64,000 nt of DNA from an uncultured euryarchaeote (GCA_937915175.1 CALDNA010000050.1:11581-75580); one strand, 5' to 3'. Counted from the first letter of the stretch, positions 6,333 to 57,584 are shown. Notes: a model not told the origin generated them from the letters alone. Numbers and translations: made by a program.

Positions 6333-9300
6333 ATGTCGCGTTGGGTAATGAATGATTCCGCATCACTCAAAATGAAGCCCGGCTTTGCCTTCCTAATGGC
6401 ACTAGCTTTAGTCACGACAACCTTTGCTGGTGTATCGTTTGCAAACCCCACAACAGGCACCGGCCCAAGTAACACGATGGCCTCTATGGACTACGATGAA
6501 CTCGAATTGATTGTCGATTTTGACGCAAATGGAACCGACTACACAAGCTTAACCTCAGAAATCCACGTCTGGGATGACGACAACTTTTCTGCTTGGTTTG
6601 GACCTGAAGACATGATGGAAGAATCTGACAACACCTCGTGGAACACCCACTGGGCTGACATCAGCCTTGTTCTCTTCTTTAACGGAAGCGCAGGCGTCTC
6701 TCCGATGGCTGATGAAGGCACATGGTACTATGTCGACGCATATGTGAACGACTCATACGGTTACACTGTCGGACAGGCATACACCCAAATCTGCATGGAC
6801 AACGGCAGCGTTTGTGAAGATGATCAAAACGGACCTGACATTGAAGATATCTTCAACCAAATCGATGCAAACCAAGACGGAGCAATCACCGCTTCTGAAA
6901 TTATTGATTTCGAAAACATGGAACGCGAATCAAACAACGAATCAAACTTAACCGCTGAAGAAGAGGCAGACATTGCTGATGATGTTGCAGAGTTCGATAC
7001 AGGCTACGATGATGGAATGGGCAACACAGAAGATGCCAACGACAGCATGCTTGAAATTAACGAATTTACCGAGATGTTCCTCGAGAGGAATACTCTGATT
7101 ACCGGTGCAGATGCATACCTCGAAGATGGCGTTGTGAGGATTGAAATTCACGATGACCTCGATGAAGTTGACTATGTTTGGATTCTCATTCATGATGGTG
7201 AAGGAAATGAACTCATCAACGAAACCTACGCAGGGGACGAAAACGGGGATTTCCAAGATTGGACAAGCCCTGACTGCTGCAATGAAGATGGAATGTACTA
7301 CATCACCCTCTACTTCTACGACGAAGATAATATGAGTATTGACTCTGATTCCTTCACACTCGGCGGATATGATAACGACCAAATGATGTTTGACATGTTC
7401 GATACCGACATGAGCGGTAACGTCTCGATCGATGAATACCTGGACGCCATGGACAACGCGAGTGATATAAACGGCGAAGACCCAATGGACAACGCAACCA
7501 GAACTATGATCTCCAACATGTTCATGGATGAAGACACCAACGAAGACGGTGAACTCGACCTTGATGAATTCCTCTCTTTCTGGAACACACTGAACAACAT
7601 GGGCGGCGACGACGACGACACGCGCACAGACGCAGAAATGATGAGGATGATGCTCGATGCAGACCAAGATGGAAACATCACGCTCTCTGAAATGCTCGTC
7701 ATGGTTGAAGAAAACCAATCTGATGCAAGCAAAATGACCACCTTCTATACCAACCTCTTCAACAACGAAGATGTCGATGGCAACGAAATGCTCGACTTTG
7801 GTGAATTCTCCGTCTTTCACGAACGCCTTGACGAACTCATGGGCGACGACTGCTATGACGTCATGGCAGGGGATGCAATCCTAAGCGATGGAACATTCGA
7901 AGACCAAGAAGGGAACGAAACCGAATTGATGGCTGGCGACACCGCACCATCAGACGGCGAGTTCTGCGAATGGGGTGAAATGGACACTGATGTAATCCTC
8001 CTCATGTTGGACACGAACGGTGATGACCAACTCAGCCTTGCTGAAATCCTTGTTGACATGACCTCTGGAGATGAAACTGCAGATGAACTCATGATGCTTG
8101 GGTTCGTGTTTGAATACTATGATGACAACGGCGATGAACTGCTCGACCACAACGAATTCGGATTGTTCTGGACACACATGCAAAGCGGTGAAGAATACAT
8201 CCCAACGAATGCTCAAATCCTCAGCATGTACGATACAGATGGCGATGGCAACCTCAGCCTGTCCGAAGTGCTCGCAGCTGTGAGCAACGGAAATGAATCC
8301 GCAGATGAACTCATGATGTTCGGATGGATCTTTGAATCCCATGATTGGGACATGAGCGGCTCCCTTGATGCCAACGAGTTCTTCTGGTTCATGGACAGCA
8401 TGCAAAGCGGTGAAGAATACACCCCGACCCCTGTTCAGATGATGGACTTGTTTGATACTGACGGTGATGGAAGTGTTTCCCTTGCGGAAACAATCGCTTT
8501 CCTCAACGCAGGTGCTGAAAACCAAGACGAAACTCTCTCAGAAATTGAAGAAGAATACCTCGGTGTTTTGTTTGGTTTCATGGATGCTGACTCGAATGGA
8601 TTGCTAAACGCTTCCGAATTCCCAGAATTCTACTATGCCTTAGACTCTGAAGAAGACCAAGGCGATATGGGCGACGATGACGGACAAGGCCAAGGTCAAG
8701 GAAATGAAACCGACATGGTTTGTTACGACATGGTCAACCATGTGATCCTCCAAAACATTGACAACTCATCCGAATGTGAAGCAGCAGGCTTCATGTGGAC
8801 TGAGAACATCAACTCCGGAGACGGAGAAGGTCAAGATAATGACTCAAATTCTGAAGAACAAGGAATCAACTTTGATTCCATGGACGTTTGGTTTGAACAG
8901 TGGAACGACCAAACAATGCAACTTGTCCTTGTCGAACTCGGTGTCGTTGACAGTCCTGAAGAAATCGAGCGCCTTTCCATGATGGCCGACGGTATGTACG
9001 GGAACAACGACAGCGTTCTCGACGAATCTGAAGTGAACATGCTCATGTCACTTTATGCAATGAGCCTCAATGTTGATGATATTGCTAAAGGTTTGACCCT
9101 CGATGGGCAAAACGGAACTGCTGTTGACTTTTGGGTCGAAATTGACGGATTGCTCGAAGGCGACGATGTCGTATTTGTCCGAATCGGAACCGTGATTGAA
9201 TTCCCAGTGACAAACACCTACGACAACTCCACCAGCCACGCATTTGTCGTGACCAACACCGATGTTGAAGACGACGGCGGTGCAGGAGAAGACTTCACTG

Positions 9301-44251: not shown

Positions 44252-44887
44252 ATGACGTTTTGGCATCAACGCTGGGATGACAATCAAACCGGTTGGCACC
44301 GCGATGTTGTCAATGATTTATTGATCAAGCATTGGCCAAGCCTCAACCTCGAACAGGGCACCAACGTGCTTGTGCCGTTGTGTGGCAAAAGCATCGACAT
44401 GCATTGGTTGGTGCAACAAGGGCACAGCGTTACGGGCATTGAACTCGTAGAAACGGCGGTTGAAGCTTTCTTCAACGAAGCCAAAAAGACACCAACCATA
44501 GAATCACTTGGAGAAATTAAGCGATACAAGGAGGGCAAAACAACACTGCTTCAAGGCGATGTTTTGGCGATACAACCTTCGATGGTTTCCAGCGATGCCT
44601 GGTACGATCGAGCGGCGCTCGTCGCTCTCCCTTCAGCCATGAGGCCTGCCTATGTCGATCAAATACGGGCACTTTGTCAACCAGGTTCAACAGGGCTGAT
44701 GATTACTTTTTCTTACCCGCAAAACGAAATGCAAGGACCGCCATTTTCACTTCCAGACGAAGAAGTTCTCAGATTGTTTGAACCAGAGTTTGAGGTGGAA
44801 TTGTTAGAACGCATTGCGCTTGAAGATGAGAAGCAACGGGGTTTAACGAGCGTTCATTCAGCAGTCTACAAATTGACTCGAACGTAA
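44252..44887 (+). CDS. tpm: thiopurine S-methyltransferase family (Tpm; includes Se/Te and halide methyltransferases)
   Basis: FWHQRWDDNQTGWHRDVVNDLLIKHWPSL...VLVPLCGKSIDMHWLVQQGHSVTGIEL...WYDRAALVALP tracks bacterial Tpm along the whole length. Confidence 0.9.
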   Translation: MTFWHQRWDDNQTGWHRDVVNDLLIKHWPSLNLEQGTNVLVPLCGKSIDMHWLVQQGHSVTGIELVETAVEAFFNEAKKTPTIESLGEIKRYKEGKTTLLQGDVLAIQPSMVSSDAWYDRAALVALPSAMRPAYVDQIRALCQPGSTGLMITFSYPQNEMQGPPFSLPDEEVLRLFEPEFEVELLERIALEDEKQRGLTSVHSAVYKLTRT

Positions 44888-47800
44888 TCAAACGTTGTCC
44901 CAATCAAGGTCAGTGCCTTTCAGTGGTTGGGGTTCTTCTTGCTTACCTTCTTGCTCCGCTTGTACTTCCGAAGCCCCATCGACCACGCCACCTTCAAGCG
45001 AAACAACCGCATTCTCATCGGCGGGTTCTGGGGCTTTGATTGTTCCAAACGCATCCCAAGATTCGATGAGGTCAATTTCAGCAAGCCGTGTTCGACGGCG
45101 AGCAGCGAGCAAAGCGATTCCAGTGAGGATTCCAATAAACGCAACAACGCCCGCAACCAGAATCATTGGACGGTTATCGCTGGCTGGTTCTTCGATTTTG
45201 AGGGTGACGCTGAGCACCTCAACGGTGGCGTCGTCGCCCGTTCCATCGGTTGCAATCACCTTCATGCTTGGGCGTCCAGCAGCCTCGGGTTGGAGTTCCA
45301 GCATGCCGGTCCACACGTTCTCATCTGCGCTTTGTGTCAGGTTCATCTCCCAAACTTGAAGGTTAAACTTGACCGTCACTCGCACATCATTGGTCGTTCC
45401 ATCAGCGTCTTCCATGGTGACCGATACCGTGAGTTGGTTGACTTCACCAGCGATCAACGTCGAAGGGGAGTAGAGTAAGTTGGAGAGACGCGGCAGGCTT
45501 GACTGGACCGTTAGGTTGGCAAAGACCTCATCAACACCACCTCGGCTGTCTTCGATGAAGAGTGATATTTTGTGTTCGCCTGGTAGGAATTTTACTTCAT
45601 CAAGGCTTTTTGTTGAAAGGATAACATAGGTGCCATCTGGTGCCCATTGACGCCATTCACGGGTAACCATGTCATCGTCTGCATCGGTTGATTCCTCGCT
45701 CAGATAGATCGTTCCTCCGGCTTCAATCGAGTCTCTATTTGTGGGGGTTAACATCACAGCAACTGGATCTGATTGGCCAACGGTGAGTGTGATGAACTGG
45801 CTGGAAGTAAGCCCCGTTTCATCTTCAAGGGTGATTTCCATGTTGTGGGTGCCAGCAGGGAGCATGCTGATGTGTGTTATTTCTGGCGAAACTGCAGAGA
45901 GCAGAGGTTCTGTCAACAAGTCGCTTCTCACGGTCATGGTGAAGTTGTCTCCATCGTAATCTGTCGAAGGGACTGCGTTCCAAAAGATCGAGTCCGAGGA
46001 ACGGAAGATTTGCCCATCTGCTGGTTCCACCAAGGCCAATTCGGGAGCGGATGGAGACACTTCGATGGTTCGCGTGACCACCACTGGGTCATGGATGCCG
46101 TCATCCAAACTCAAGGAGATGATGTGGGTTCCCGAGGAGAGTCGAGTGTCAAAGATCAGCCAATCCTCGCCAACAGGCGTCAGTCGCCCATCCAAGTCAC
46201 TCGACCAAACGACAATGAGGTATTCAGAGCCGGCAAATGGCTCCTGCTCAGCGCAATGCCAACTCCCATTCACGGGGAAGGTGGAGCATGCGGCGTCATA
46301 GTCGCCTGAACCGTTTGCAGAGAACCATATCAACTCTGAAGATGAATACGTTAAGGTTTCACTTGGGGTCGAGATGTCTGCTTGAGGGAACGAGTTTTCG
46401 ACAGGAACTAGCGTAGAGGAAGTCTTGGTGGCGTTAATGTGTTCAGGCCGGTCATCAACCACCCGCATCTCAATGCTATGGACGCCACGAGAAAGGTGAC
46501 CTGTCCAGACGTTTGCCCCTTCTTGGTTTGACCATCCGAGTTGCCCATCGAGGCTTGACCACCATTCAACCTCAAGGGTGTCACCTTCCGGATCGATCGT
46601 AGTGGATCCGTCAAAGGTGACCGTTTCTTGACTTTCATTCCCGTTGCGCTGAACTTCGAACACTGGTGTTGGAACTTCATTGTAAATTTCCACAGGAATG
46701 GTGTATGTTGAAGGAGCATTGATGCCATCGGAGGCATAGAGGGTCAAATCGAAGGTTGAAGGTACGGTCTCTTCCATCGTTAAATTCATCCAAATTTCAC
46801 TTGGGCAGGATGCAGATGTGGTTTCGGATTCGATGTAGGACCTCTCAATCCAGCAGGTCAATGCATCACCTTCGGGATCTGAGATTCCGCTGATGTTGAA
46901 ATGAACACTCTGTGTCCTTGGAATGATTAGTTCTGACCATGGCGTCATTGCAGGTGTGACATCAAAGACAATTGTAGGTGGTTGATTGACAAGTTCAATG
47001 GTTCTGGTTTCTGAGACACAATGCCCTGCATCGTCACACACTTCCAACGTGATGACATGAATACCATCAGATAATTGACATCCCATATTCAGATAATTTG
47101 TATTTACCGTGAATGGAACCCCATTGGTCATATCTTGTTGAGTAATTCCCTGCCCATTGCCCACTCCCTGTCCGTTACATGACGCCACAATATCACCATC
47201 GAGGTCACTTGTCCATGTGAACGAGAGTTGATCATCATCAAGGTCCCAAGAATCAGAGGCATTGAATTCCACAGGTCCTTGCGAAATGAACACTCCCGAA
47301 TCAACTGGAGTAGACCACATCACGAATGGTGGTTGGTTGGCAAGAGGCAAAATACAATTGACAAAACGGTCTTGGTCGAGCACCAATGATGTCGTGTTTG
47401 AAACACTGTCATAACCACATGAAACGCTGATGCTGTTGTCAGAAGAAGCCCCTGTGTTGGTCCATCGTTGACCGATGAAGTCAGGCAGTTGCACGTAACC
47501 AAGGTCGTTTGTCGACTCCTCAACCGAGGGTTCGAATTGTGCAAAAGAGGTGTTGACATTGGCGTTTGGAATACCGTTGGTGAAGTTGTTTACCACCCAC
47601 ACTGTGATGTCCCAAGCCACATCGATGGTGGCTGAACCAGCGATGCTTGCCAACGTCAAATCCACGTTCACTGGTTGGTGCAGGTGCAAGTCTGAGGTGC
47701 TATCGAGTTGGATTTGGTGTGCGCCCGTTGTATCGGTGAAGCCAGACCAATTGACTTGGCTGTTCTGTAAGACGATGGAACCACTGCATGCAGCGGTCAC

Positions 47801-49747
47801 GCTGTTGCCCGTTCCAGAAAGGGATATGTGATCAATGAGGGTCAAACAAGCCGTTCCTGTAAACTCAGTTCGACTGATCGAGGAAGGGAAGTTTCCATTG
47901 TTGTTGGCATCCCATTCAATGCCGCTGTGGTTGCCTGTCATTATGATTTGATCAAGGTTAGCCGCTGCATGGTTGAGGGATATCGCAGGGACATCAGGCC
48001 CTTCCAAGTCGATTGTGGCGCCGTGGAGTTGGACCCGCCCGCCTTGTTGACCAAGGGTGAGCCCTTGGTTGTCGACAAGGAGCGGTGAACGCGCTGGGTT
48101 GTTATCTGAAAGGTTGAGCCCGTACAACCACAAGTCAACTGAATTAAGCGCATAGAGGCCAGAACCGGAAGAACCGGTCACGGAACAGTTGCGGCATGTG
48201 ACGTTGCCCGAAGAGGATTCAATGTCGTTTGATTTTTCATAGAACAAACCGGCTTGATCGCCCAGAGGTGCTGTTGCAGGATCCCCGCCGTTGTCGGTTG
48301 CTGTCAGGTTTTGCAAGGTCACGTACCTCGCATCGTACACATGAGCGCCAGATTGGCCGTTTGAGGCGAGGTGCAAGCCTTCGACAATCACAGTGGCTTT
48401 GTCGATGAACAATCCGTCTCGTGTGTTGTTGTGAAGGTGCCAAGTAGAGCCTTGCATGGCTCCACCAGAAGTTGAAGAAACCCCCGGGCCGACTGAACCC
48501 GCCACGGTGAGTCCGTCGAAGTGAGGCGCAAAGAACGACGAGCGTACGGCAACACCAGCTTCATGGGGACCTTGTCCAGGATCGCCTGAATTCAGCACCG
48601 TCAGATTGCGGAAGGTCGTCGAACTGTCGACGAAATACAGCCGAACGCCAACGGTTGTTGAATCTTCAACCAGCGTGTTCTCAAACCATGCTCCGGTGGC
48701 GTTCACATCGATTGCTGCGAAACCAATGTTGGCTGTTGTAGCGCCTGGGCCGCCCGTTCCACGAACGGTGAGGTTGGTGAAATCTGCTGTTTCATAGTTG
48801 GTGTAATTGGTGTGATTCAACTTGTCGACATAGACGCCTCGGTACATGGAATTGGTCACGGTTGCGTCCTTGACCACCGCCCGAGTGTAGCCGCCATCAT
48901 CGACGTGTCGAATGACGATCCCAGTGTCTGATTTATCGATGGAGATGTTGGTCAACAGCGGTTGGCTGTCTTCGACCCAAACGCCTGCTGCCATGGCCCA
49001 AGATGAGCCACTGATGTTGTCCATGACGATGTTACGAAGCAAGCCACCAGAGCCGCCCCATATGTTGATCGCACGCGTCAAGTGATCGGTGAAGTACGCA
49101 CCATCGACGATGGGGGTTGACCCTGCTCCAATGGAGAGTCCAAGCCCGTAGCGCCAATCGTTTTGAATTGGAACCATTCGCCCTGCTTGGTCGATGTACA
49201 AATCCCGAATCACTGGGGATGAACTGCTGAACAAATCAAGTCCGACTCGGTCCGGATTGATGATGGTGAGGTTGGTGAACAAGGGGTTGCTTCCAAACAT
49301 TGTCACCCCGTAAATCCCATCTTCGATGGTGAGGTTGTGAATCACCGAGCCGCGCCCGTTGGAACTGCTGTTGAATTGGATGCCCTCATGGTCCGAAGAG
49401 GCAAACGAATACATCACAACTGGGCAACTGCTCGTTCCTTCAACCGTCAAACGCCCCTCGACGAAAATCCGTGCACCTGCACCGAGTTCAATCTGGGTGC
49501 AAGCGCTTACAATGAGTTCATCGAACACTGCAACGGTGTATGAAGTGGTGACCGTGACGGTGCCTGACCAAGTGGTTTGGGCCCTTGCTGCGGTGTAATC
49601 TATGGGTGATTCTTCCGACTCAAGCGCATCAAGTGGATTCGTCGTCATGCCCGCAAGAGGCGTGAAAAGCAACAAACAAACCAAGACAAATGCCGACCAG
49701 TGGCGATGTGTCTTGGTGTCCATGAAGTGAGGTCCATGCAAACGCAC
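44888..49747 (-). CDS. giant type-I surface protein: right-handed parallel beta-helix region plus multiple PKD/Ig-like domains, TM helix, acidic tail
   Basis: Signal peptide WSAFVLVCLLLFTPLAG. The N-terminal ~650 aa have periodic N/G/T/V-rich rungs (e.g. HNLTIEDGIYGVTMFGSNPLFTNLTIIN). Later repeated modules look like ...F.AS.S.D.DDD.L.F.W.S.LDG.... TM helix PMILVAGVVAFIGILTGIALLAA. Tail ends LKGTDLDWDNV. More than 20 N-x-S/T sequons by eye. Confidence 0.85.
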   Translation of the reverse strand: MRLHGPHFMDTKTHRHWSAFVLVCLLLFTPLAGMTTNPLDALESEESPIDYTAARAQTTWSGTVTVTTSYTVAVFDELIVSACTQIELGAGARIFVEGRLTVEGTSSCPVVMYSFASSDHEGIQFNSSSNGRGSVIHNLTIEDGIYGVTMFGSNPLFTNLTIINPDRVGLDLFSSSSPVIRDLYIDQAGRMVPIQNDWRYGLGLSIGAGSTPIVDGAYFTDHLTRAINIWGGSGGLLRNIVMDNISGSSWAMAAGVWVEDSQPLLTNISIDKSDTGIVIRHVDDGGYTRAVVKDATVTNSMYRGVYVDKLNHTNYTNYETADFTNLTVRGTGGPGATTANIGFAAIDVNATGAWFENTLVEDSTTVGVRLYFVDSSTTFRNLTVLNSGDPGQGPHEAGVAVRSSFFAPHFDGLTVAGSVGPGVSSTSGGAMQGSTWHLHNNTRDGLFIDKATVIVEGLHLASNGQSGAHVYDARYVTLQNLTATDNGGDPATAPLGDQAGLFYEKSNDIESSSGNVTCRNCSVTGSSGSGLYALNSVDLWLYGLNLSDNNPARSPLLVDNQGLTLGQQGGRVQLHGATIDLEGPDVPAISLNHAAANLDQIIMTGNHSGIEWDANNNGNFPSSISRTEFTGTACLTLIDHISLSGTGNSVTAACSGSIVLQNSQVNWSGFTDTTGAHQIQLDSTSDLHLHQPVNVDLTLASIAGSATIDVAWDITVWVVNNFTNGIPNANVNTSFAQFEPSVEESTNDLGYVQLPDFIGQRWTNTGASSDNSISVSCGYDSVSNTTSLVLDQDRFVNCILPLANQPPFVMWSTPVDSGVFISQGPVEFNASDSWDLDDDQLSFTWTSDLDGDIVASCNGQGVGNGQGITQQDMTNGVPFTVNTNYLNMGCQLSDGIHVITLEVCDDAGHCVSETRTIELVNQPPTIVFDVTPAMTPWSELIIPRTQSVHFNISGISDPEGDALTCWIERSYIESETTSASCPSEIWMNLTMEETVPSTFDLTLYASDGINAPSTYTIPVEIYNEVPTPVFEVQRNGNESQETVTFDGSTTIDPEGDTLEVEWWSSLDGQLGWSNQEGANVWTGHLSRGVHSIEMRVVDDRPEHINATKTSSTLVPVENSFPQADISTPSETLTYSSSELIWFSANGSGDYDAACSTFPVNGSWHCAEQEPFAGSEYLIVVWSSDLDGRLTPVGEDWLIFDTRLSSGTHIISLSLDDGIHDPVVVTRTIEVSPSAPELALVEPADGQIFRSSDSIFWNAVPSTDYDGDNFTMTVRSDLLTEPLLSAVSPEITHISMLPAGTHNMEITLEDETGLTSSQFITLTVGQSDPVAVMLTPTNRDSIEAGGTIYLSEESTDADDDMVTREWRQWAPDGTYVILSTKSLDEVKFLPGEHKISLFIEDSRGGVDEVFANLTVQSSLPRLSNLLYSPSTLIAGEVNQLTVSVTMEDADGTTNDVRVTVKFNLQVWEMNLTQSADENVWTGMLELQPEAAGRPSMKVIATDGTGDDATVEVLSVTLKIEEPASDNRPMILVAGVVAFIGILTGIALLAARRRTRLAEIDLIESWDAFGTIKAPEPADENAVVSLEGGVVDGASEVQAEQEGKQEEPQPLKGTDLDWDNV

Positions 49748-49840
49748 TTCAAGGATTCGGCTTCGTGTGCTTCATTCTAGCACTCGACGTACAAGACCTT
49801 GATTCGCAACCAATAAGGCGGGACCGTTGCTGGACGGAGC

Positions 49841-50074
49841 ATGCCTGAGGCGTTTGTGTTGTTCAAAACCCTACCTTCTCACGAGCGAGAGGTGTACCTT
49901 GCGCTCAGCGAACACGCATCAATTGCTGAAGTCCATGCTCTGTATGGGGAGTTTGATCTCCTTGTCCGCGTCAGTTCGGAAAACGCAGGAGAACTGACTT
50001 CTCTGTTGATGCGAGAATTTCGCCAAATCTCTGGCGTGAAGGAAACTCAAACGCTTATTGCGGTCGAATACTGA
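49841..50074 (+). CDS. stand-alone RAM domain protein (Lrp/AsnC ligand-binding domain only), copy 1
   Basis: 77 aa: AFVLFKTLPSHEREVYLALSEHASIAEVHALYGEFDLLVRVSSEN...ISGVKETQTLIAVE. This is the beta-alpha-beta-beta-alpha-beta RAM pattern with no HTH. Confidence 0.8.
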   Translation: MPEAFVLFKTLPSHEREVYLALSEHASIAEVHALYGEFDLLVRVSSENAGELTSLLMREFRQISGVKETQTLIAVEY

Positions 50075-50083
50075 GGTGAAGTT

Positions 50084-50317
50084 ATGGCAATTGGATTTGT
50101 TTTGATTACAACACAACCGGGACGAGAACACGATGTTCGTGCAAAACTTGACAGCATCGAGTACGTGACAGATCGTTGGATGTTGTTTGGTGAATACGAT
50201 TTGATCGCTCGGGTGCAAGCGGATGATGAGTACACCCTCACACGGTGCATCGTCGAAGACATTCGAGTCATCGAAGGCATTGCCGACACCAAGACACTCA
50301 TTGGCGCCGAACTTTGA
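50084..50317 (+). CDS. stand-alone RAM domain protein, copy 2 (tandem paralogue)
   Basis: 77 aa: GFVLITTQPGREHDVRAKLDSIEYVTDRWMLFGEYDLIARVQADD...IEGIADTKTLIGAE. Starts 9 nt after copy 1. Confidence 0.8.
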   Translation: MAIGFVLITTQPGREHDVRAKLDSIEYVTDRWMLFGEYDLIARVQADDEYTLTRCIVEDIRVIEGIADTKTLIGAEL

Positions 50318-52579
50318 TCACAGCAGCAAATGAAGCTGTGATTCCAGAGACTTTGCGGCGCGCGGGCAACCTGCTGCTCGATGCAGAGTAATCGCTTCGC
50401 GCAATGCAATGCGTCGCATGTTTGGCTCTAACTTTGATTTGCAGGTCCACCAGCGAGCATGAAGGCGATGGAGGGTGGCGCTGTTGGAAGAGGCCGTTGG
50501 CTCAGCCGTTGCTGAAAATGCGTTTTTTGCTTTTTCCACATCCGTTTCGCTCAAGAACTCGACGAGTGAGAGGCGCAGCCCATCCGCTCGAACCGAATTG
50601 GTCTGTCCTTCGATTGCGTCTTGCATTTCTTGAACCGCTTTCGCCCGCTCGTTGGCAGTTTGAGCGGAAAGCAGGTGGGCTTTTGCTTCCATGCCCTGCA
50701 ACAGAGGTTGGGCGAGCCCTCCAATTCCAGCAAGGGAAGTTCTGAGGCGTTGAGCCTTTTCGAAATCGCCCCCTCGCAAGGCTAGAGCATGTTGAATCAT
50801 GGACATGGCCACAATCGTCACTGAACGCTCATCCGAAGCCTGTTCGGAAATGTCGACTATGGACAAGTAGTGCTTGATGTCCTTTGACAGCGATGCATCT
50901 TCCTGTCCAAACACGCAATCATCGAGCCGACGAGCGGCGGCGGCGAGGGCCATACGGTTGGCTTCACTCGGGGCATCGGAAGTCAGACCGGCTTCAATGA
51001 GTTCCTCCGCATCGGAAACCCTGCCTTCCAGCATCGCCAAGCCAAGGGCGACTTGACGTGACTTCGCCGCATCTTCAATCCCCTCAAGGTGTCGACGAAC
51101 GTGGTCTGGTTCGCACCGCTCAATGGCCACCTTACCAGCAAGGTAGTGCAAATGTGAAGGCGCTGAAGACACTTTGATCGCCTGTTCGAGCAGAACTGAA
51201 AATGCACCAGAGTGCGTCTCCAACAATGGCGCCATTTCTGAATCAAGTTGGGCATCGATCCCTTCTTCAAGGCTGGCGATTCGATGATAGAGCAAGATGA
51301 CATGGTCGTCGGCGGTTTCTGCTAACGCCTTCCAATGTTCGACTGCTGCCTTATGCAATTGCCGTTTTGCATCTTCGTCGAGGGCAGAACGGCGCACATT
51401 TCGCACCAAATGTTGGATTTCCATTTTTTCAAGGTTTGAAGTCCAACGCAAAAAGGCATAATCATCCAAGGTACCAACAACTTCGCTGTCAAACGCCTTT
51501 TTGGCTTCAATGGGCATTGGCACCATGACGATGTGATCAAGGCCCGAACGGGTGGATTCGTCGAGGGTGGAAAGAACAACATCCTCCACATAAGATTGGA
51601 CATCCGCTCCAGCCTCTGGCAGCGGCGCCCCGTCTTCATGAAGTAAAATGGCCAGTGGGTGACCACCAAGGCTCTCTGCGACATGGAGCCGTTCGCCTTC
51701 CTCGAGTGATTCGCCCAACAGCAGTGCTGCGTCTTTGACTTCGAGTGCTGGAACGGTGATGCGGGGCAGTTGGTCCGCAAAGGAAAATGGCTCCCTGCCA
51801 ATCAACAGCATGTGAGCGGCTTGAGCGCTGTCAAGAAGACCGCAGAAGGAACTGATGGAATCGCTGTGGCGTTCCGGAATCAGGTGTGCGTCATCAATGA
51901 CCAAGACTTCTCCCTTGCATTTGAGGGCGGCAAATTCAGCAAGCGCTTCGTGGTTTTTCGGAAGTGGATCCTTGAATCCCCATTGTTGGCACAGGGCGTG
52001 GAGATCTGTAAAGTCGTCAACTGAGGCCCATCGGACGTTTGTTCCCGAGGCAAGGAGTTCCTCACTCACAAGACCGCCGAGGGTTGTTTTCCCAATGCCT
52101 GGAAGGCCACTGAGGACCAAACAATGCTGTTCTTGAATGTTCTTGATCACTTTTTCTGCAAGGTGAAGACGTCCGTGGATTTCTCCGAGGTGAGGGAGAT
52201 TTCCGAATGATTTCCCGCGAGAGGTTTTCTTCGTTTTCTTTTCATCACCCAGTTGCTCAAACGCTTTTCGGCCTGATTCGGTGAGATGATACACATGCCT
52301 TCGCCTTGAACCGCCACCGATGACGTGAGCCTTTCGCTTGAAAACAAGCCCGTTGTCTTCGAGGCTATTGAGCGGGGAGTTCAACGCACTGCGCACCACA
52401 CCCAGTGCTTCGCTGATTCCGGGAAGCGATAGGTGTCGAGTCACGTCCCATGCCTTTTCCATGGTTGGTGAAAAACCACCAAGCCAGCGTAATATACGCT
52501 CCTGTGGTGCTGAAATGGAATCAACCATGGCACTTCCCATGAACGAGCCGCTTTCTAACCACCGCTTTCCATGCATCAA
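50318..52579 (-). CDS. STAND NTPase of the NB-ARC/AP-ATPase type with an N-terminal winged-helix DNA-binding domain and a C-terminal helical-repeat (TPR-like) sensor region
   Basis: wHTH: LSLPGISEALGVVRSALNSPLNSLEDNGLVFKRKAHVIGGGSRRRHVYHLTESGRKAF. Walker A VLSGLPGIGKTTLG, Walker B EVLVIDDAH, and GxP motif SLGGHPLAILL. About 400 aa of Ala/Leu-rich helical repeats follow. Confidence 0.8.
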   Translation of the reverse strand: MMHGKRWLESGSFMGSAMVDSISAPQERILRWLGGFSPTMEKAWDVTRHLSLPGISEALGVVRSALNSPLNSLEDNGLVFKRKAHVIGGGSRRRHVYHLTESGRKAFEQLGDEKKTKKTSRGKSFGNLPHLGEIHGRLHLAEKVIKNIQEQHCLVLSGLPGIGKTTLGGLVSEELLASGTNVRWASVDDFTDLHALCQQWGFKDPLPKNHEALAEFAALKCKGEVLVIDDAHLIPERHSDSISSFCGLLDSAQAAHMLLIGREPFSFADQLPRITVPALEVKDAALLLGESLEEGERLHVAESLGGHPLAILLHEDGAPLPEAGADVQSYVEDVVLSTLDESTRSGLDHIVMVPMPIEAKKAFDSEVVGTLDDYAFLRWTSNLEKMEIQHLVRNVRRSALDEDAKRQLHKAAVEHWKALAETADDHVILLYHRIASLEEGIDAQLDSEMAPLLETHSGAFSVLLEQAIKVSSAPSHLHYLAGKVAIERCEPDHVRRHLEGIEDAAKSRQVALGLAMLEGRVSDAEELIEAGLTSDAPSEANRMALAAAARRLDDCVFGQEDASLSKDIKHYLSIVDISEQASDERSVTIVAMSMIQHALALRGGDFEKAQRLRTSLAGIGGLAQPLLQGMEAKAHLLSAQTANERAKAVQEMQDAIEGQTNSVRADGLRLSLVEFLSETDVEKAKNAFSATAEPTASSNSATLHRLHARWWTCKSKLEPNMRRIALREAITLHRAAGCPRAAKSLESQLHLLL

Positions 52580-52631
52580 TCAAAGTGACTCAAGGGGTTT
52601 CCTTTTTTGGGGGCGGCGACGAGCAGAACGC

Positions 52632-54359
52632 ATGCCTGTCACCCTCGCTTCGGTGGATTTCCCCAAGCGCCCGGGTGTTTATTTGTTCAAAACCAACCAA
52701 GGGCGCGTCCTCTATGTTGGGAAGGCAACGAAACTGAATGAACGAATTCGCTCCTATTTTGCTCAAACTCCAGACCGGCAAATGATCCCCGAACTTGTCA
52801 AGCGTTCCGATGACATTGAGTGCATCGTCACCAATTCGCCAGAAGAGGCCTTGATCCTTGAGCGCCAACTGATTCGCCAGCATAAACCGCGGTATAATTC
52901 AATGCTCAAGGATGACAAATCATACCCCTATTTGGTGTTAACAAAGGAAGAGATTCCGAGAATCATGTACACCAGGCACCCCCCAAAAGCAAGCCTGAGA
53001 TGGGGGCCGTTCCCAAACGCTGGTGCTGCAAAACAAGTCATGCAATTGCTGCGGAGGCAATTTGGAATTCGAGATTGCAAGGAATTGCTTCCCCAAGGAT
53101 GCTTGTCAATGCACATTGGATTGTGCGCTGGACCTTGCATTGATGCAACGGGATACACTCAGCGCGTGAACACCGCTCGTCGAATCTTAAACGGTGACGC
53201 TGTTGCTTTGCTGGAAGAATTAGCTCAAGAGATGGATGAGGCTTCTGAATCAATGGAATTCGAGCAAGCAGCGGCTCATAGAGACACCATACGAGCGGTC
53301 CGTGCAACAACAGGCCAACACGTTGTATCGAGCAAAGTCTACCGTGATTGCGATGCGATTGGTATTGTAGCACAAGGAGAAATGGCTGCCGTGGTGGTCA
53401 TGCATGCCGATCAAGGTGTGGTCAAGGGTCAAGAGGTGTGGCCGATGGTGCATCGAGGTGACCTTGGAGAAACTGTGGCCAACTTTGTGGCGGAGCATTA
53501 CGCCAACAGACGCCCTCCAAGGTTGCTCTTGACTCCAACTCCACTGTTGAACGGGGTCGAAGAATGGTTGTGCACGCGACGGGACGCTAAGGTCGAAGTT
53601 CGTACGCCCCTCCGTGGCGATTTAGTGACCTTGCTCACCCTCGCTCGACAGAACGCTGACATCCAAATGACCCGATTAGCAAACGCAACCAGCGGATCGT
53701 TAGAACAACGCGCAGCCAACGACGGAGCCGCTGTGCTAGGAATGGATCAATTGAATCATATCGTTTGCTTCGACATGTCTCAACTGCTGGGCGATGAACG
53801 GGTTGGTGGAAGCGTGACCTTTCGCAATGGAAGGCCCACGAAGAAAGAGTACCGGACCTACATTGTCAAGAGCGACGCAATGGATGACCTGCGCATGATG
53901 CGAGAAGTGGTTGAACGATGGCTGAAGCGCCAAGACTCCTGGCCAGATTTGCTTCTCCTCGACGGTGGTGAAACTCATTTGTCCACAATCACCGCCTTGC
54001 TCAAGGAGCATGAGGTGCTCGATCAATTTGCACTCGCCGCTTTGGCAAAGCGTGAGGAAACAATTTACAGGAATGGCCAAGAACCTATCATCTTGGATCG
54101 AAAAGGCAGAGTCATGGTCCATGCCCGTGATGAAGCGCATCGCTTTGTCAACACCTATCACCGAAAACGACGTGGGCGAAGCAGGCTTTCTGATCCGTTA
54201 GAACAAGTGGAAGGTTTGGGCGCTAAGAAGATGCAAAATCTGCTTCGGCATTTTGGTGGGAGGCAAGGCATTCAACATGCATCGGCTGACAACTTGATGA
54301 CCGTCCCCGGGATTGGACCAGCGCTTGCTAAGCGGATTTATGACGCCCTTCACGGATGA
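52632..54359 (+). CDS. uvrC: excinuclease ABC subunit C
   Basis: GIY-YIG (PGVYLFKTNQGRVLYVGKATKLNERIRSYF), UVR domain (MEFEQAAAHRDTIRAV), endonuclease region, and C-terminal HhH (LMTVPGIGPALAKRIYDAL). Start trimmed from 52338. Confidence 0.9.
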   Translation: MPVTLASVDFPKRPGVYLFKTNQGRVLYVGKATKLNERIRSYFAQTPDRQMIPELVKRSDDIECIVTNSPEEALILERQLIRQHKPRYNSMLKDDKSYPYLVLTKEEIPRIMYTRHPPKASLRWGPFPNAGAAKQVMQLLRRQFGIRDCKELLPQGCLSMHIGLCAGPCIDATGYTQRVNTARRILNGDAVALLEELAQEMDEASESMEFEQAAAHRDTIRAVRATTGQHVVSSKVYRDCDAIGIVAQGEMAAVVVMHADQGVVKGQEVWPMVHRGDLGETVANFVAEHYANRRPPRLLLTPTPLLNGVEEWLCTRRDAKVEVRTPLRGDLVTLLTLARQNADIQMTRLANATSGSLEQRAANDGAAVLGMDQLNHIVCFDMSQLLGDERVGGSVTFRNGRPTKKEYRTYIVKSDAMDDLRMMREVVERWLKRQDSWPDLLLLDGGETHLSTITALLKEHEVLDQFALAALAKREETIYRNGQEPIILDRKGRVMVHARDEAHRFVNTYHRKRRGRSRLSDPLEQVEGLGAKKMQNLLRHFGGRQGIQHASADNLMTVPGIGPALAKRIYDALHG

Positions 54360-57300
54360 TCAATCAAAGAGCACATCGCCAAGATCTTCATCGGCTGCAT
54401 CCGTCACATCAAACGAAACCTCGTCAAACGGGGATTTTTTCAGGCCTTCCGAGCTCACGGCCTCTTCAATCGAAACGACGCTCGATAGGGCCGAAGTGGC
54501 AACGGCGGAAGGGGGCGCTTGAGGAAGAGGTGGAACAGAAGGGGCGTTGGGGGTCACTTGCAATTGTTCAAGGTCCCCATGCAGTGCTTCGCTATGGAAT
54601 CCGGAAAGATCTGCGAACTCGGCGTTGCCCAATTTAGGCTTGGAGGCAGATGCGGATCTAGCCCTGCGAATCTTTCTTATTCGCTTCTTCTTTCTGCGAC
54701 GACGAACGTAAAGCAAGAGCAAAATGAGGATAATAGCGGGGTACTTCCAAAATTGCACCAAGAAGTACAACCAGGTGAGGTGGAGTTGGAACGTGATGGT
54801 GTCTTCAACATCACCAGCAGGCAACGTGTATGTGATTTGTTGGCGCCCATCAACCATCACGTCTTCGATGTTGCCTTCAGCGGATTCGAGGTTTTTCAGA
54901 GTAATCCCTCTTGGAAGGGTCACAGTGAATGGCCCGTTCACTGCCACTTCGAATTCCTTTTGCAGTTCATGTGGCATGGTGTTGAAGTTTAATGGAACAG
55001 AAATGGTACCGTCTGAGTCCTCATCAGGAAGGGTTACGCCATCCCATTGGACAATGCTGTTCGTCAGCATACCGGTAACCCCTTGCATAAGCATGGCCAT
55101 TGGTTCGATGAACATCGAACGGATTGCATCCGCTACGAGACTCAATTGAATGCCGGAGGTGTCTCCGTCGCGAAGTTTACCTAAATCGCCTCCAATGCTG
55201 AGTTCAAATTGGACCTTTGGGATTTTGAGTGTCAGACTCAGTGGCTCTTCATCGCTGACAATAAGGTCAGGGGCACCAACGCCCTTGAGCCGCGTTTGAA
55301 TCTCAAAAGCACTGATGTCGATTTCTTTAAAATTGATGTGTTTGTTATCCATCAACAACTGAGAATATTCGTGGAGGAAAAGCGTGAACAACTCTCCTGT
55401 TCGTTTTACAAAGGTTGCAAGTCCTTCGGCTGTAAATTCAAACGTAAGGCTTTCGTTGCAAATGCTAAGTCCAGGCCGGCAAAGGAGTTCACCGATTTCA
55501 AAAGTACGGTTCATTGGATTGTCCACCCTGCTCGCAATTTCAAGTCCGAGTCGAATTAAATCAGAAGGCAACGCCTCGAGCATCACGCTGTGTTCGTCGA
55601 CTTGTGGAATGCGATCGGTCGGAATGCCAATTCGATACACAGATACATCTGCATCCAAGCCAAATTCAAACTCGACGGATTGAGTCCATTCGTTCAGATT
55701 GAATGACATTGCGTCCATTTCTACAGCGGTTGTGACGCAAGTTTTGTTGGTGCTGGGGCAAAGAACATTTTGATTGGCGTCTCGGATGACATGCCGCCAA
55801 TCGTATGGGTTTGTACCAGCAAAGGAAATACGGTTGGTATCATTGCCGGCAAGGGTGTCTTTGAGCACCAAGCGGTCACCGCCAGCAGCGGTCCGGACCC
55901 ATGTTGGCAAGATGATTTCAAGCGTCAGTTCAGAAGGCGGGAGATTTTCAGGAACAATCGCTGAGAGGTAACTGCTGTCAAGTACCGTTTCAAGGGTTAA
56001 TCCAGAGTTCAGCACGCGTTCGAAGTCCGCTTCCTCCAGTTCGTCGATGATCACTGCGAGTTCCTCGTTTTCGTTATTTTCTGCCAAAATGTCGATCAAG
56101 CGCATCGAAAAGGGTTGGCTGGTAGTTTGGAGATAGACTGGGTGTTCAACACCCATTGCCTCTGCGCCGAGTGTACAATAATGCAGATCAACCCCCGCAG
56201 GCGCTACCTCAGTGCAGCCGGTTGAATGGGAATAGTTGAGCCCTCCCGAAGGCATTGAGCCAACAGCAGACCTCGAAGAAATCCATGACATGTTGTTCAT
56301 CTCAATGGTGTCGATTCCCGCTACAGTGGAGGATACGCCTTCCGCAATTACATCGATCGGGAATTGAGAAGTGAAGTTTGACAAGTCGACAAGTCCGTTA
56401 TGATACGCTAGGCGAATGCCGTCTGCGGTCACCAGCGGAACTGTGGCTTGGTCTGCCACCTCCATCAGAGAGATACCCCAGTCTTGCATTGTTTTGTCAT
56501 CCAGATAGTACATACCCGCAACAAAATCCAACGTTGCTGCTGATTCATCGCGCAGGTCTAATGTGATCTGCAGATCAAGAGCCTTGCTTCCTTCAGGCAC
56601 TTCCACAGTTGTTGTGTCAGTGCGATTTCGGTGGCTGATTAACAATTCAACACTTTGGCTCAAGTTTGAGTCAAAGTTTGTTGCTGCCCGATGGTCGATG
56701 ACCCATGAGCCTGAGTTGTAGTTGGGCGTGCCCGCACGCAAGAGGAGTTGGCCTTGGGCGTCAACAGCGTCAATGGTTGCGTAACTTGGAGGGTTGAATA
56801 TGTACGATGCAAGATGGCCTCGTTGAGCGACGAAGTCGAAGGAGGAGGTGATTTCTGTCCCCATAACGAGAAGCCCCTGATAGGCCCGTTCGAGTTTTAG
56901 ATCTGGGTTGGAACCGAGGTTGAACGACGATTGGTCAACTTGGATAATGGCCGATGTCGACAAGCAAATTGGGGGGTAGAAGGCATTGTTTTCTGAAGCG
57001 CCCTCTTCGGCGGAATCGGTTGCTGGATCACTGGAACAAGGTGTCGTGACGGCACCGTTTGTGTATTGGTTGGCAAAATTGGTCGAGACGACAACCTCGC
57101 CCATGCTGGTAAGAGAAGATTCGATGGCTCCACTGATTTCACTTTTGAGTTTATCTTCAACTGTAGCAGAACCCGCACCATCAGTTTCTTGATCAAAGAA
57201 ATTCCGAATCAAGTCGGCTGGGGCTCCGTCGTCTGCTTCCAAACCGTCGTTCGCTAAGTAGGCGTCAAGGTATACATTTGAAAGTCCAAGCAATTCGCGA

Positions 57301-57584
57301 TCGAATTCATAAATGGCCCAAGTCAATTCCAATTCTATCTGCTCGGTGCTCACCATGCTGAACTCATAGGTTCCTTCAATCCAGTCTTGAAAGTCAGGGG
57401 TTCCATCGTCTGCTTCATCGTATGAATCACAAATTCCATCAACCCCAGCACCCGGGTCTTTATCGCAGGATGTCATGCCTGCAGCGGCCGCATAAGGAAC
57501 AAAAATCGAGAGCATCATCACAAAGACGAGCGCGTTGGCAAGAGCTTGCTGGCGGAAGTTTGTCCCGCGTGGCGCATGGCTCAT
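54360..57584 (-). CDS. orphan 1074-aa type-I membrane protein (large non-repetitive ectodomain, TM helix, polybasic stop-transfer, acidic tail)
   Basis: N-terminal helix ALANALVFVMMLSIFVPYAAAAG, C-terminal TM helix YPAIILILLLLYV followed by RRRRKKKRIRKIRRARS, tail ending DEVSFDVTDAADEDLGDVLFD. No family recognised. Confidence 0.8.
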   Translation of the reverse strand: MSHAPRGTNFRQQALANALVFVMMLSIFVPYAAAAGMTSCDKDPGAGVDGICDSYDEADDGTPDFQDWIEGTYEFSMVSTEQIELELTWAIYEFDRELLGLSNVYLDAYLANDGLEADDGAPADLIRNFFDQETDGAGSATVEDKLKSEISGAIESSLTSMGEVVVSTNFANQYTNGAVTTPCSSDPATDSAEEGASENNAFYPPICLSTSAIIQVDQSSFNLGSNPDLKLERAYQGLLVMGTEITSSFDFVAQRGHLASYIFNPPSYATIDAVDAQGQLLLRAGTPNYNSGSWVIDHRAATNFDSNLSQSVELLISHRNRTDTTTVEVPEGSKALDLQITLDLRDESAATLDFVAGMYYLDDKTMQDWGISLMEVADQATVPLVTADGIRLAYHNGLVDLSNFTSQFPIDVIAEGVSSTVAGIDTIEMNNMSWISSRSAVGSMPSGGLNYSHSTGCTEVAPAGVDLHYCTLGAEAMGVEHPVYLQTTSQPFSMRLIDILAENNENEELAVIIDELEEADFERVLNSGLTLETVLDSSYLSAIVPENLPPSELTLEIILPTWVRTAAGGDRLVLKDTLAGNDTNRISFAGTNPYDWRHVIRDANQNVLCPSTNKTCVTTAVEMDAMSFNLNEWTQSVEFEFGLDADVSVYRIGIPTDRIPQVDEHSVMLEALPSDLIRLGLEIASRVDNPMNRTFEIGELLCRPGLSICNESLTFEFTAEGLATFVKRTGELFTLFLHEYSQLLMDNKHINFKEIDISAFEIQTRLKGVGAPDLIVSDEEPLSLTLKIPKVQFELSIGGDLGKLRDGDTSGIQLSLVADAIRSMFIEPMAMLMQGVTGMLTNSIVQWDGVTLPDEDSDGTISVPLNFNTMPHELQKEFEVAVNGPFTVTLPRGITLKNLESAEGNIEDVMVDGRQQITYTLPAGDVEDTITFQLHLTWLYFLVQFWKYPAIILILLLLYVRRRRKKKRIRKIRRARSASASKPKLGNAEFADLSGFHSEALHGDLEQLQVTPNAPSVPPLPQAPPSAVATSALSSVVSIEEAVSSEGLKKSPFDEVSFDVTDAADEDLGDVLFD

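Follow-up and report, generated by a model that had tools for sequence, protein, structure and literature searches.

A PH0952-type STAND protein beside a pair of stand-alone RAM proteins in Candidatus Poseidoniales

The locus and its gene models

Poseidoniales are among the most abundant planktonic archaea of the surface ocean and are uncultured; to our knowledge, their gene regulation is essentially unknown. The window analyzed here, a stretch of 64,000 nucleotides (nt) of GCA_937915175.1 (CALDNA010000050.1:11581-75580), belongs to a genome of Candidatus Poseidoniales (Marine Group II, Thermoplasmatota). The subject is one locus within it, in which the gene for a large STAND NTPase, with a predicted N-terminal winged helix-turn-helix (wHTH) and a helical-repeat sensor, meets two tandem genes, RAM1 and RAM2, each coding for a small protein that consists of a RAM domain only. 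Both kinds of protein are already known; what is new is an order-wide PH0952-type STAND member beside a conserved stand-alone RAM pair. Positions are those of the 64-kb window, and residue numbers of the STAND protein refer to the 753-codon open reading frame (ORF) and not to the 736-residue protein. The main features are the following.

49841-50074, plus strand: RAM1, stand-alone RAM protein of 77 residues without a helix-turn-helix (HTH), PF01037
50084-50317, plus strand: RAM2, stand-alone RAM protein of 77 residues, starting 9 nt past the RAM1 stop, PF01037
50318-52579, minus strand: STAND ORF in its longest form, 753 residues, TTG start
50318-52528, minus strand: STAND gene from the conserved ATG, 736 residues, putative PH0952-type STAND transcription regulator
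52253-52510, minus strand: wHTH, ORF residues 24-109, with the basic wing GGGSRRR
51380-52210, minus strand: nucleotide-binding oligomerization domain (NOD), ORF residues 124-400, made of a nucleotide-binding domain (NBD), a helical domain (HD) and a winged-helix domain (WHD)
50321-51376, minus strand: arm and TPR-like helical-repeat sensor, ORF residues 402-753, 18 helices

The ORFs listed by a first-pass annotation of this DNA, and the motif strings that it quoted, were all found in the window; the 753-residue ORF holds NSLEDNGLVFKRKAHVIGGGSRRRHVYHLTESGRKAF, GLPGIGKTT, VLVIDDAH and LGGHPLAIL. Its description of the RAM genes as a pair 9 nt apart that ends exactly where the STAND gene ends is also correct: the RAM2 stop codon, TGA (50315-50317), directly abuts that of the STAND gene, which reads TCA on the plus strand (50318-50320).

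Regarding the start of the STAND gene, 80 orthologous loci were inspected; the figures on start codons and junctions given here and below rest on about 78-80 loci, those on synteny on about 90. The start is placed at M18 of the ORF (ATG, 52526-52528), the sole ATG that is kept, at -25/-22 residues from the AWDV motif, in about 80 orthologues. The 736 residues counted from M18 are in line with the lengths of the orthologues (722-740 residues), and the 17 codons upstream of it overlap conserved, promoter-like elements of noncoding character. The predicted 736-residue product is the conserved gene model, replacing the 753-residue one. With the start moved to M18, and the uvrC ATG at 52632, the divergent region between the two genes becomes 52529-52631, in place of the shorter 52580-52631 of the first-pass annotation. 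Scans for tRNA genes and Rfam families gave no match near the locus.

The STAND protein and its relatives

The large protein is assigned as a PH0952-type STAND NTPase with an N-terminal wHTH and a helical-repeat sensor, and the assignment depends on profile and fold matches to PH0952, not on Pfam. A profile built from 14 orthologues of 34-74% identity, the set from which the invariant columns cited below were also taken, was compared with the sequences of the PDB; PH0952 (6mfv_A) came first with E=4.6e-10 over profile positions 108-342, in an alignment that takes in GIGKT, IIDD and FGHPL, and was followed by P-loop-only matches to Clp/Hsp104, by the plant NLR NRC4 (7e-7) and by Avs4 (0.01). 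The AlphaFold2 (AF2) model of the protein (predicted local distance difference test, pLDDT, 86.2; predicted template modelling score, pTM, 0.76) led Foldseek to the same structure: 6mfv_A was first with E=4.4e-12, 668 aligned columns spanning NOD, arm and TPR, and a template modelling (TM) score of 0.49, and the runners-up, which mostly covered the NBD only, trailed by 7 or more orders of magnitude (Avs4, 3e-5; NOD2, 2e-4; ORC; RuvB).

PH0952 of Pyrococcus horikoshii (6MFV), a STAND ATPase whose sensor is of the TPR type, is predicted to be a transcription factor; its clade, sister to the APAF1/NB-ARC clade, falls between APAF1 and MalT (Lisa et al. 2019; PMC6468293). As for Pfam, the best match was nSTAND3, with 27.1 bits against a cut-off of 27.2 and over residues 142-196 only; AAA_22 also matched, and no Pfam TPR match was found in the protein. 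Pfam NB-ARC (PF00931) gave no match to the window protein at E<=1, though a few orthologues carry precomputed PF00931 matches. The architecture of a signal-integrating STAND regulator, with wHTH, NTPase and helical repeats, that the first-pass annotation had recognized is therefore borne out by the profile and Foldseek matches to PH0952; its label "NB-ARC-type" holds approximately, in that the PH0952 clade is sister to APAF1/NB-ARC, and fails in that the Pfam family itself does not match. The comparison of the NTPase core that it had proposed, of NB-ARC with MalT and Avs/NACHT, was run as this profile and fold search, and PH0952 was closest. The Ala/Leu-rich helical repeats that it had noted are present, and amount to about 350 residues (402-752) instead of 400.

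In the AF2 model, the wHTH (residues 24-109) is followed by a disordered linker, a Rossmann-type NBD (124-280), the HD (281-315), the WHD (327-400) and 18 helices (402-752). The wHTH is modelled as three helices and a β-hairpin with pLDDT of 83-92; its Pfam matches are weak and below the gathering score, all within residues 50-109 (PadR, E=8.7e-5; HTH_34, MarR_2 and TrmB, E up to 2e-2). No other domain of the protein is conserved as well: the 14-sequence alignment has 21 invariant residues here, with a mean pairwise identity of 0.59, against 0.30-0.33 for NBD, arm and sensor, a degree of conservation that fits a conserved DNA target.

In the NOD, Walker A spans G158-T165, with G158, G161, G163 and K164 invariant in the 14 orthologues and T/S at 165 conserved; the Walker B aspartates D229 and D230 are invariant, as is, further down, R262 of the GREP motif, the Arg of a sensor-1-like strand, and the corresponding β-strands of the model run through 225-229 and 256-260. 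The HD consists of three helices and ends in the GxP motif, L304-G305-x-H307-P308, in which L304, G305, H307 and P308 are invariant, as is A310; it aligns with FGHPL of PH0952, and the GxP motif is the one that contacts the P-loop in the STAND NOD (PMC6468293). The predicted WHD is modelled as helices at 327-373, a β-hairpin at 377-388 and a helix at 390-399, with H390, R393 and N394 invariant and H390 as the candidate for the MHD-like ADP sensor; its fold aligns with the NOD of 6mfv. Toward the C-terminus, conservation is strong in the last 50 residues of the sensor (ARWW, 708-711; AGC, 736-738).

Compared with PH0952, the window protein has the same order of wHTH, NBD-HD-WHD, arm and TPR-type sensor, and GIGKT, hhhhDD and GHPL are common to both; however, the two are only about 14% identical, the window sensor has no Pfam TPR match, its wHTH is PadR/MarR-like rather than ArsR-like, and its family is apparently limited to Poseidoniales, as a single syntenic orthologue group. 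MalT, AfsR (SARP-NOD-TPR) and GutR share with it a STAND NOD and a helical-repeat sensor coupled to a DNA-binding domain. MalT offers the paradigm of an inducer-triggered, ATP-dependent multimerization that activates transcription, and its control by the protein inhibitors MalK, MalY and Aes is the template for the RAM hypothesis considered below; yet MalT carries a C-terminal LuxR-type HTH, whereas the C-terminus of the window protein consists of helical repeats with no HTH match, and MalT is absent among the top solved-structure matches of the profile. AfsR differs in its N-terminal OmpR/SARP-BTAD part, which takes the place of the MarR/PadR-like wHTH. Avs4 (8DGF) and bacterial NLR-like proteins resemble the window protein in having a STAND NOD followed by a helical-repeat sensor, with weak fold and sequence matches; they differ from it in that it has neither a killing effector nor a PADLOC model match, and in that its gene shows vertical synteny and not the setting of a defence island.

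Homologues sharing words with the STAND query number 572, of which the best 120 are full-length and 34-100% identical to it; relatives occur in at least 288 species-representative genomes, and the 80 closest loci belong to Poseidoniaceae, Poseidonia or unclassified marine euryarchaeal metagenome-assembled genomes (MAGs). An exhaustive profile search over 1.84 billion representatives returned about 40 full-length clusters at 50% identity (E from 0 to 1e-82), after which the E-value drops sharply to about 1e-44; below the drop only the NOD region matches, in STAND-TPR proteins of 600-1000 residues. Because of this drop after some 40 clusters, the family appears to be one discrete orthologue group, apparently confined to Poseidoniales. 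The 243-residue fragment of PH0952 taken from the PDB alignment, when used as a query, found no match in the protein collection.

The STAND gene occupies the same syntenic position on every contig, and its inheritance across Candidatus Poseidoniales is taken to be vertical. Of six neighbouring proteins, its product evolves fastest: the mean Kimura distance is 1.14, compared with 0.29 for UvrC and 0.26-0.32 for the two RAM proteins. One MAG, SI034_bin52 (JABGWN01, loci L023 and L078), contains two copies of the whole block, whose STAND proteins are 53% and 36% identical to that of the window; two Poseidoniales populations have probably been binned together here, true paralogues being the less likely explanation.

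The RAM pair and the conserved neighbourhood

RAM1 and RAM2 are both covered end to end by PF01037 (AsnC_trans_reg), with E=1.7e-12 and 47.5 bits for RAM1 and E=6e-11 and 42.5 bits for RAM2 against a cut-off of 25, and neither has an HTH. They are about 35% identical to each other, and their orthologues are 65-97% (RAM1, 84 loci) and 70-97% (RAM2) identical, so that they are described here, on sequence grounds, as two distinct and old paralogous lineages of stand-alone Lrp/AsnC RAM domains. Their best PDB relatives are themselves stand-alone: the 75-residue P. horikoshii protein of 2cvi/2e1a (E of about 1e-8) and S. tokodaii 2zbc for RAM1, and 2e1a/2cvi (E of about 1.5e-9) for RAM2. The first-pass view of the two small paralogues as RAM domains without HTH is confirmed by these matches together with the Pfam scores. 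The structures 2cvi and 2e1a we take to be those of the stand-alone RAM protein DM1 of P. horikoshii, and 2ZBC is presumably STS042 of S. tokodaii. GE[YF]D and TxT are kept in both paralogues and align with the same motifs of the P. horikoshii stand-alone RAM protein; the positions concerned presumably contact the main chain of the ligand.

As a class, the stand-alone RAM proteins of P. horikoshii (DM1-DM3; 2E1A/2CVI/2Z4P, a 75-residue protein), S. tokodaii (2ZBC) and T. thermophilus (2DJW) resemble the window pair in length (about 75-80 residues), in consisting of the RAM domain alone, in providing its best end-to-end PDB matches (E 1e-8 to 1e-9), and in the conserved GE[YF]D and TxT. The window pair is set apart by being two old paralogues in fixed tandem across a whole order. 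Known members of the class bind amino acids and shift between dimer and octamer, and their physiological role has been called unclear; the one documented mode of action is that of DM1, which forms a hetero-octamer with the full-length Lrp FL11 (PMC2995911).

The genes around the STAND and RAM genes, given here as context, are as follows.

52632-54359, plus strand: uvrC, 575 residues, with GIY-YIG, UVR, UvrC_RNaseH and HHH domains; the divergent housekeeping neighbour of the STAND gene
44888-49747, minus strand: β-helix surface-protein gene, 1619 residues (Beta_helix, PF13229, E=1e-19), adjoining RAM1
54360-57584: gene for a membrane-anchored ORFan of 1074 residues, abutting the 3' end of uvrC
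44252-44887: TPMT-family (thiopurine S-methyltransferase) gene (PF05724, E=2e-67), abutting the 3' end of the β-helix gene

The first-pass annotation had suggested looking for the RAM-RAM-STAND neighbourhood in related MAGs, and it turned out to be conserved across the whole orthologue family: RAM2-RAM1 adjoins STAND in about 90 loci, among which STAND identity falls as low as 34%. The gene order, namely TYW2 methyltransferase, a protein of about 1000 residues, uvrC, STAND, RAM2, RAM1, a β-helix protein of about 1600 residues and a glycosyltransferase or TPMT, is kept in practically all loci of sufficient length. The orthologues that diverge most, L087 and L088, keep it too, and in them STAND and RAM2 overlap by 20 nt. 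Between STAND and RAM2 the spacing lies within -4 to +4 nt in about 75 loci out of 78. The conservation extends well beyond the RAM genes: the same degree of synteny holds for a block of at least 8 genes, and all six neighbouring genes examined are as strict as the RAM pair.

The region between uvrC and STAND is a hot-spot for insertions of 1-4 kb in the clade of about 52% STAND identity (L001, L014, L015, L017, L021, L028, L029, L033); the inserts are ORFans of 237-322 residues or a TPR protein of 585-593 residues divergent from the STAND gene, and are uninformative. In three loci with inserts, uvrC is no longer found within 6 kb.

Two divergent regions, both putative promoter regions, flank the genes of interest.

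49748-49840: between the β-helix gene (minus strand) and RAM1 (plus strand)
52529-52631: between the STAND gene and uvrC

In the first, a TATA-like CCAATAAGG at 49810-49818, conserved, lies about 26 nt upstream of the RAM1 ATG; a conserved element of the GAATCCTTGAA type adjoins the β-helix gene, and CTTATTG[CG]TTGC and GAACCNTTGAA are likewise conserved in 78 loci. Because of the position of CCAATAAGG, a leaderless RAM1-RAM2 transcript is suggested, and the Shine-Dalgarno-like GAGGTGA at 50073-50079, ahead of RAM2, suggests that RAM2 is co-transcribed with RAM1. In the second region, a TATA-like GGTGGTTAGAAAG on the STAND strand (52551-52563 on the plus strand) is centred about 27 nt upstream of the M18 ATG; given this distance, and the overlap of the 17 upstream codons with noncoding elements, the STAND transcript is probably leaderless too. 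On the uvrC side, a T-run at 52604-52609 lies about 25 nt before the uvrC ATG.

Over both regions, conserved TATA-like elements (CCAATAAGG, TTAGAAA, the T-run and CCTTGAA, at 49810-49818, 52551-52563, 52604-52609 and 49748-49760) sit about 25-27 nt before the start codons of RAM1, STAND, uvrC and the β-helix gene, which suggests that these Poseidoniales genes give leaderless mRNAs. From the same spacing, the real start of the β-helix gene is placed, as the probable one, at M9 of its ORF.

The search for target sites of the wHTH that the first-pass annotation had proposed for the uvrC/STAND region produced one candidate operator, TGATGCATG at 52570-52578, conserved in the clades of 74-94% and 52% identity; how far it can be trusted is taken up below. 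An operator common to the STAND/uvrC and RAM1/β-helix regions was considered and rejected, the findings being only TATA-like elements of the YTTWGAA type and the clade-limited TGATGCATG.

Readings of the locus

The account that we favour, with some reserve, is that the large gene encodes a vertically inherited, PH0952-type STAND transcription factor, that the RAM pair is a separate operon, and that the adjacency of the two is frozen synteny. The position of the RAM genes beside STAND is best explained by an order-wide frozen synteny in a compact genome, and on present evidence the locus is best filed as an ordinary regulator neighbourhood, well characterized.

By analogy with the PH0952/MalT/APAF1 paradigm (PMC6468293), the resting STAND protein would be an ADP-bound, closed monomer, autoinhibited by contacts of the arm and of the sensor with the NBD; an inducer would bind the helical sensor, ADP would be exchanged for ATP, the NOD would open and multimerize, and the N-terminal wHTH domains so arrayed would bind promoter DNA. 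It would probably act on the promoter of its own gene, and perhaps also on the giant surface-protein gene nearby. The two RAM genes would form a separate, probably leaderless two-gene operon; their products would most likely bind amino acids as homo- or hetero-oligomers and, following the DM1-FL11 precedent, would act via full-length Lrp-type partners encoded elsewhere in the genome.

Some observations weigh against this account. No full-length Lrp gene lies within the 64-kb window, and the proposed partner of the RAM proteins is thus hypothetical. The candidate operator TGATGCATG is kept in two clades only and shows no enrichment in the window, with 5 matches where 4.0 are expected, so that the target-site search just mentioned, while yielding a candidate, yielded one that is limited in both respects. 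The block made of STAND, RAM2, RAM1 and the β-helix gene shows no insertion in about 90 loci, while the junction of uvrC and STAND is broken several times. Finally, in a partial Mantel (mirror-tree) analysis in which the distances of uvrC, the β-helix protein and the 1074-residue protein were regressed out, STAND retained residual covariation with RAM1 (partial r=0.35) and RAM2 (0.33), near the value for RAM1 with RAM2 (0.31) and well above that for STAND with uvrC (0.05). This residual covariation fits a link between the proteins, and it is accounted for just as well by a genealogy that the genes of one physically linked block have in common; partial Mantel tests are, moreover, known to be unreliable.

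Among the other explanations, the one that survives best, though it appears unlikely, holds that the conserved partner of STAND is the giant surface-protein gene, in a relation of regulator and target, and that the RAM operon merely shares the divergent promoter region of that gene. The 1619-residue β-helix gene adjoins RAM1 in every locus that extends that far, its residual covariation with STAND is 0.56, and large extracellular-type genes are found next to or near STAND in all five remote loci: NosD/Beta_helix (1129 residues) and DUF7948/SBBP (1034 residues) proteins in L090, an ORFan giant of at least 1611 residues in L093, Cadherin/Big_9 in L089, FG-GAP/PKD/CARDB in L091, and VIT with a PQQ propeller in L092. 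STAND and giant extracellular genes may accordingly be associated as regulator and target; however, such genes are abundant in these genomes and the association has no background control, no operator motif is common to the STAND and β-helix promoter regions, and the covariation may simply reflect physical linkage.

The first-pass annotation had advanced a different idea, that RAM oligomers binding amino acids act in trans on the STAND ATPase. In the form considered here, a RAM1/RAM2 (hetero-)oligomer would bind amino acids and act on STAND as an anti-activator or co-inducer, giving an amino-acid-gated switch, and this we regard as improbable, as we do direct coupling of RAM to STAND in any form. 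In its favour stand the adjacency kept in about 90 loci and down to 34% STAND identity, the most divergent orthologues included, the uninterrupted RAM-STAND block beside a broken uvrC junction, the residual covariation with both RAM proteins, and the retention of GE[YF]D and TxT in both paralogues; the last 50 residues of the sensor, strongly conserved, might serve for docking, and PMC10427625 offers, in MalT and MalY, a precedent for protein inhibitors of a STAND transcription factor.

Three of these lines were tried as evidence of coupling and rejected. Conservation of the neighbourhood is unspecific, since uvrC, the 1074-residue protein, TYW2, the β-helix gene and the glycosyltransferase, all unrelated to the RAM genes, are equally syntenic. 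The stop-to-stop junction is generic in this genome, as most convergent pairs in the window abut likewise; six others abut or overlap (44887/44888, 54359/54360, 15197/15207, 26717/26709, 35516/35492 and 58817/58827). The mirror-tree signal is weak, and all four linked genes co-vary.

Against action in trans there is also the fact that the RAM and STAND genes are convergent and not co-transcribed, and that the RAM proteins evolve about 4 times more slowly than STAND (Kimura distances above). The RAM pair is missing from one locus: in the MAG TMED99 (NHFA02000044.1; locus L028, 8266-8370) it is cleanly deleted and the 738-residue STAND ORF is intact, with TCAGAGTTC, the 3' end of RAM2, remaining after the STAND stop and the β-helix gene about 100 nt further on. 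None of the five remote wHTH-NOD-TPR homologues (L089-L093) has a RAM gene nearby. For a stand-alone RAM protein, the partnership on record is with a full-length Lrp (DM1 and FL11; PMC2995911), and control of a STAND protein by a RAM domain is described in neither PMC6468293 nor PMC2995911. The proposal of RAM oligomers acting on STAND is thus left with no specific evidence, in view of the synteny of at least 8 genes, the generic abutment, the deletion in L028 and the RAM-less remote homologues.

Its most elaborate version, in which a RAM1/RAM2 hetero-oligomer senses amino acids, docks on the C-terminal end of the sensor or on the NOD, and holds STAND closed or releases it, as MalK, MalY and Aes do with MalT, in a switch that controls the adjacent surface-protein gene, is a little less probable still. 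If a link between RAM and STAND were true, it would explain why stand-alone RAM proteins exist; it would amount to an amino-acid-gated master switch in protein- and peptide-degrading Marine Group II archaea, controlling the adjacent giant surface-protein gene, and would give the PH0952 clade its first function and stand-alone RAM proteins their first physiological role other than in hetero-oligomers with Lrp.

It is very improbable that the STAND protein is a generic AAA+/ORC-like DNA-binding ATPase, such as a chromatin or replication factor, rather than a ligand-gated switch. The Pfam matches, all below cut-off, do include AAA_22, AAA_16, RuvB_N and IstB, and ORC/Cdc6 and RuvB figure in the Foldseek list; but the latter cover the NBD only (TM to query 0.17-0.21), whereas the alignment to PH0952 takes in NOD, arm and sensor, two hallmarks of STAND proteins, the GxP motif and the His of the predicted WHD, are invariant, and the wHTH is N-terminal, unlike the C-terminal one of Orc1/Cdc6. 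The defence sensor that the first-pass annotation had given as its alternative, an antiviral (Avs/NLR-like) protein with the wHTH as effector or sensor of phage DNA, can hardly be right: Avs4 and NOD2 are among the fold and sequence matches, STAND is the fastest-evolving of the six neighbours and one clade has a variable hot-spot for insertions just upstream of its gene, but PH0952 is a far better match than Avs4, the PADLOC matches are weak and partial (best E=3.6e-4 over 30 P-loop residues), the wHTH is the sole domain besides NOD and sensor, with no nuclease, protease, TIR or SIR2 effector, and a fixed position with vertical inheritance among uvrC, TYW2, TPMT and glycosyltransferases is the opposite of a patchy defence island.

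Returning to the favoured account, of a vertically inherited STAND transcription factor beside an independent RAM operon, an order-wide regulator with a fixed syntenic position and a highly conserved DNA-binding domain is a concrete target for study in these archaea; since the PH0952 clade has a structure and no known biology, the conserved genomic context, here the giant surface-protein genes and perhaps the RAM sensors, may also help to assign it a function.

A few observations concern the surroundings of the locus. The STAND gene of the window lies between two genes for very large proteins, that for the 1619-residue β-helix protein (0.5 kb away) and that for the 1074-residue membrane-anchored ORFan. 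Beside the 3' end of the β-helix gene, a GT2 glycosyltransferase replaces TPMT in other clades. Directly downstream of the remote STAND homologue of L093, on the same strand of a contig from an uncultured organism, a gene at 7379-7915 codes for a Ras/Roc-family small GTPase of 179 residues (PF00071, E=2e-38). Finally, where two genes of the window converge, they nearly always abut or overlap at the stop codons, with no room for intergenic terminators; given convergent stops without intergenic space, the 3' ends of convergent transcripts must, judging from the gene coordinates, overlap as antisense, a feature that would be genome-wide and not specific to this locus.

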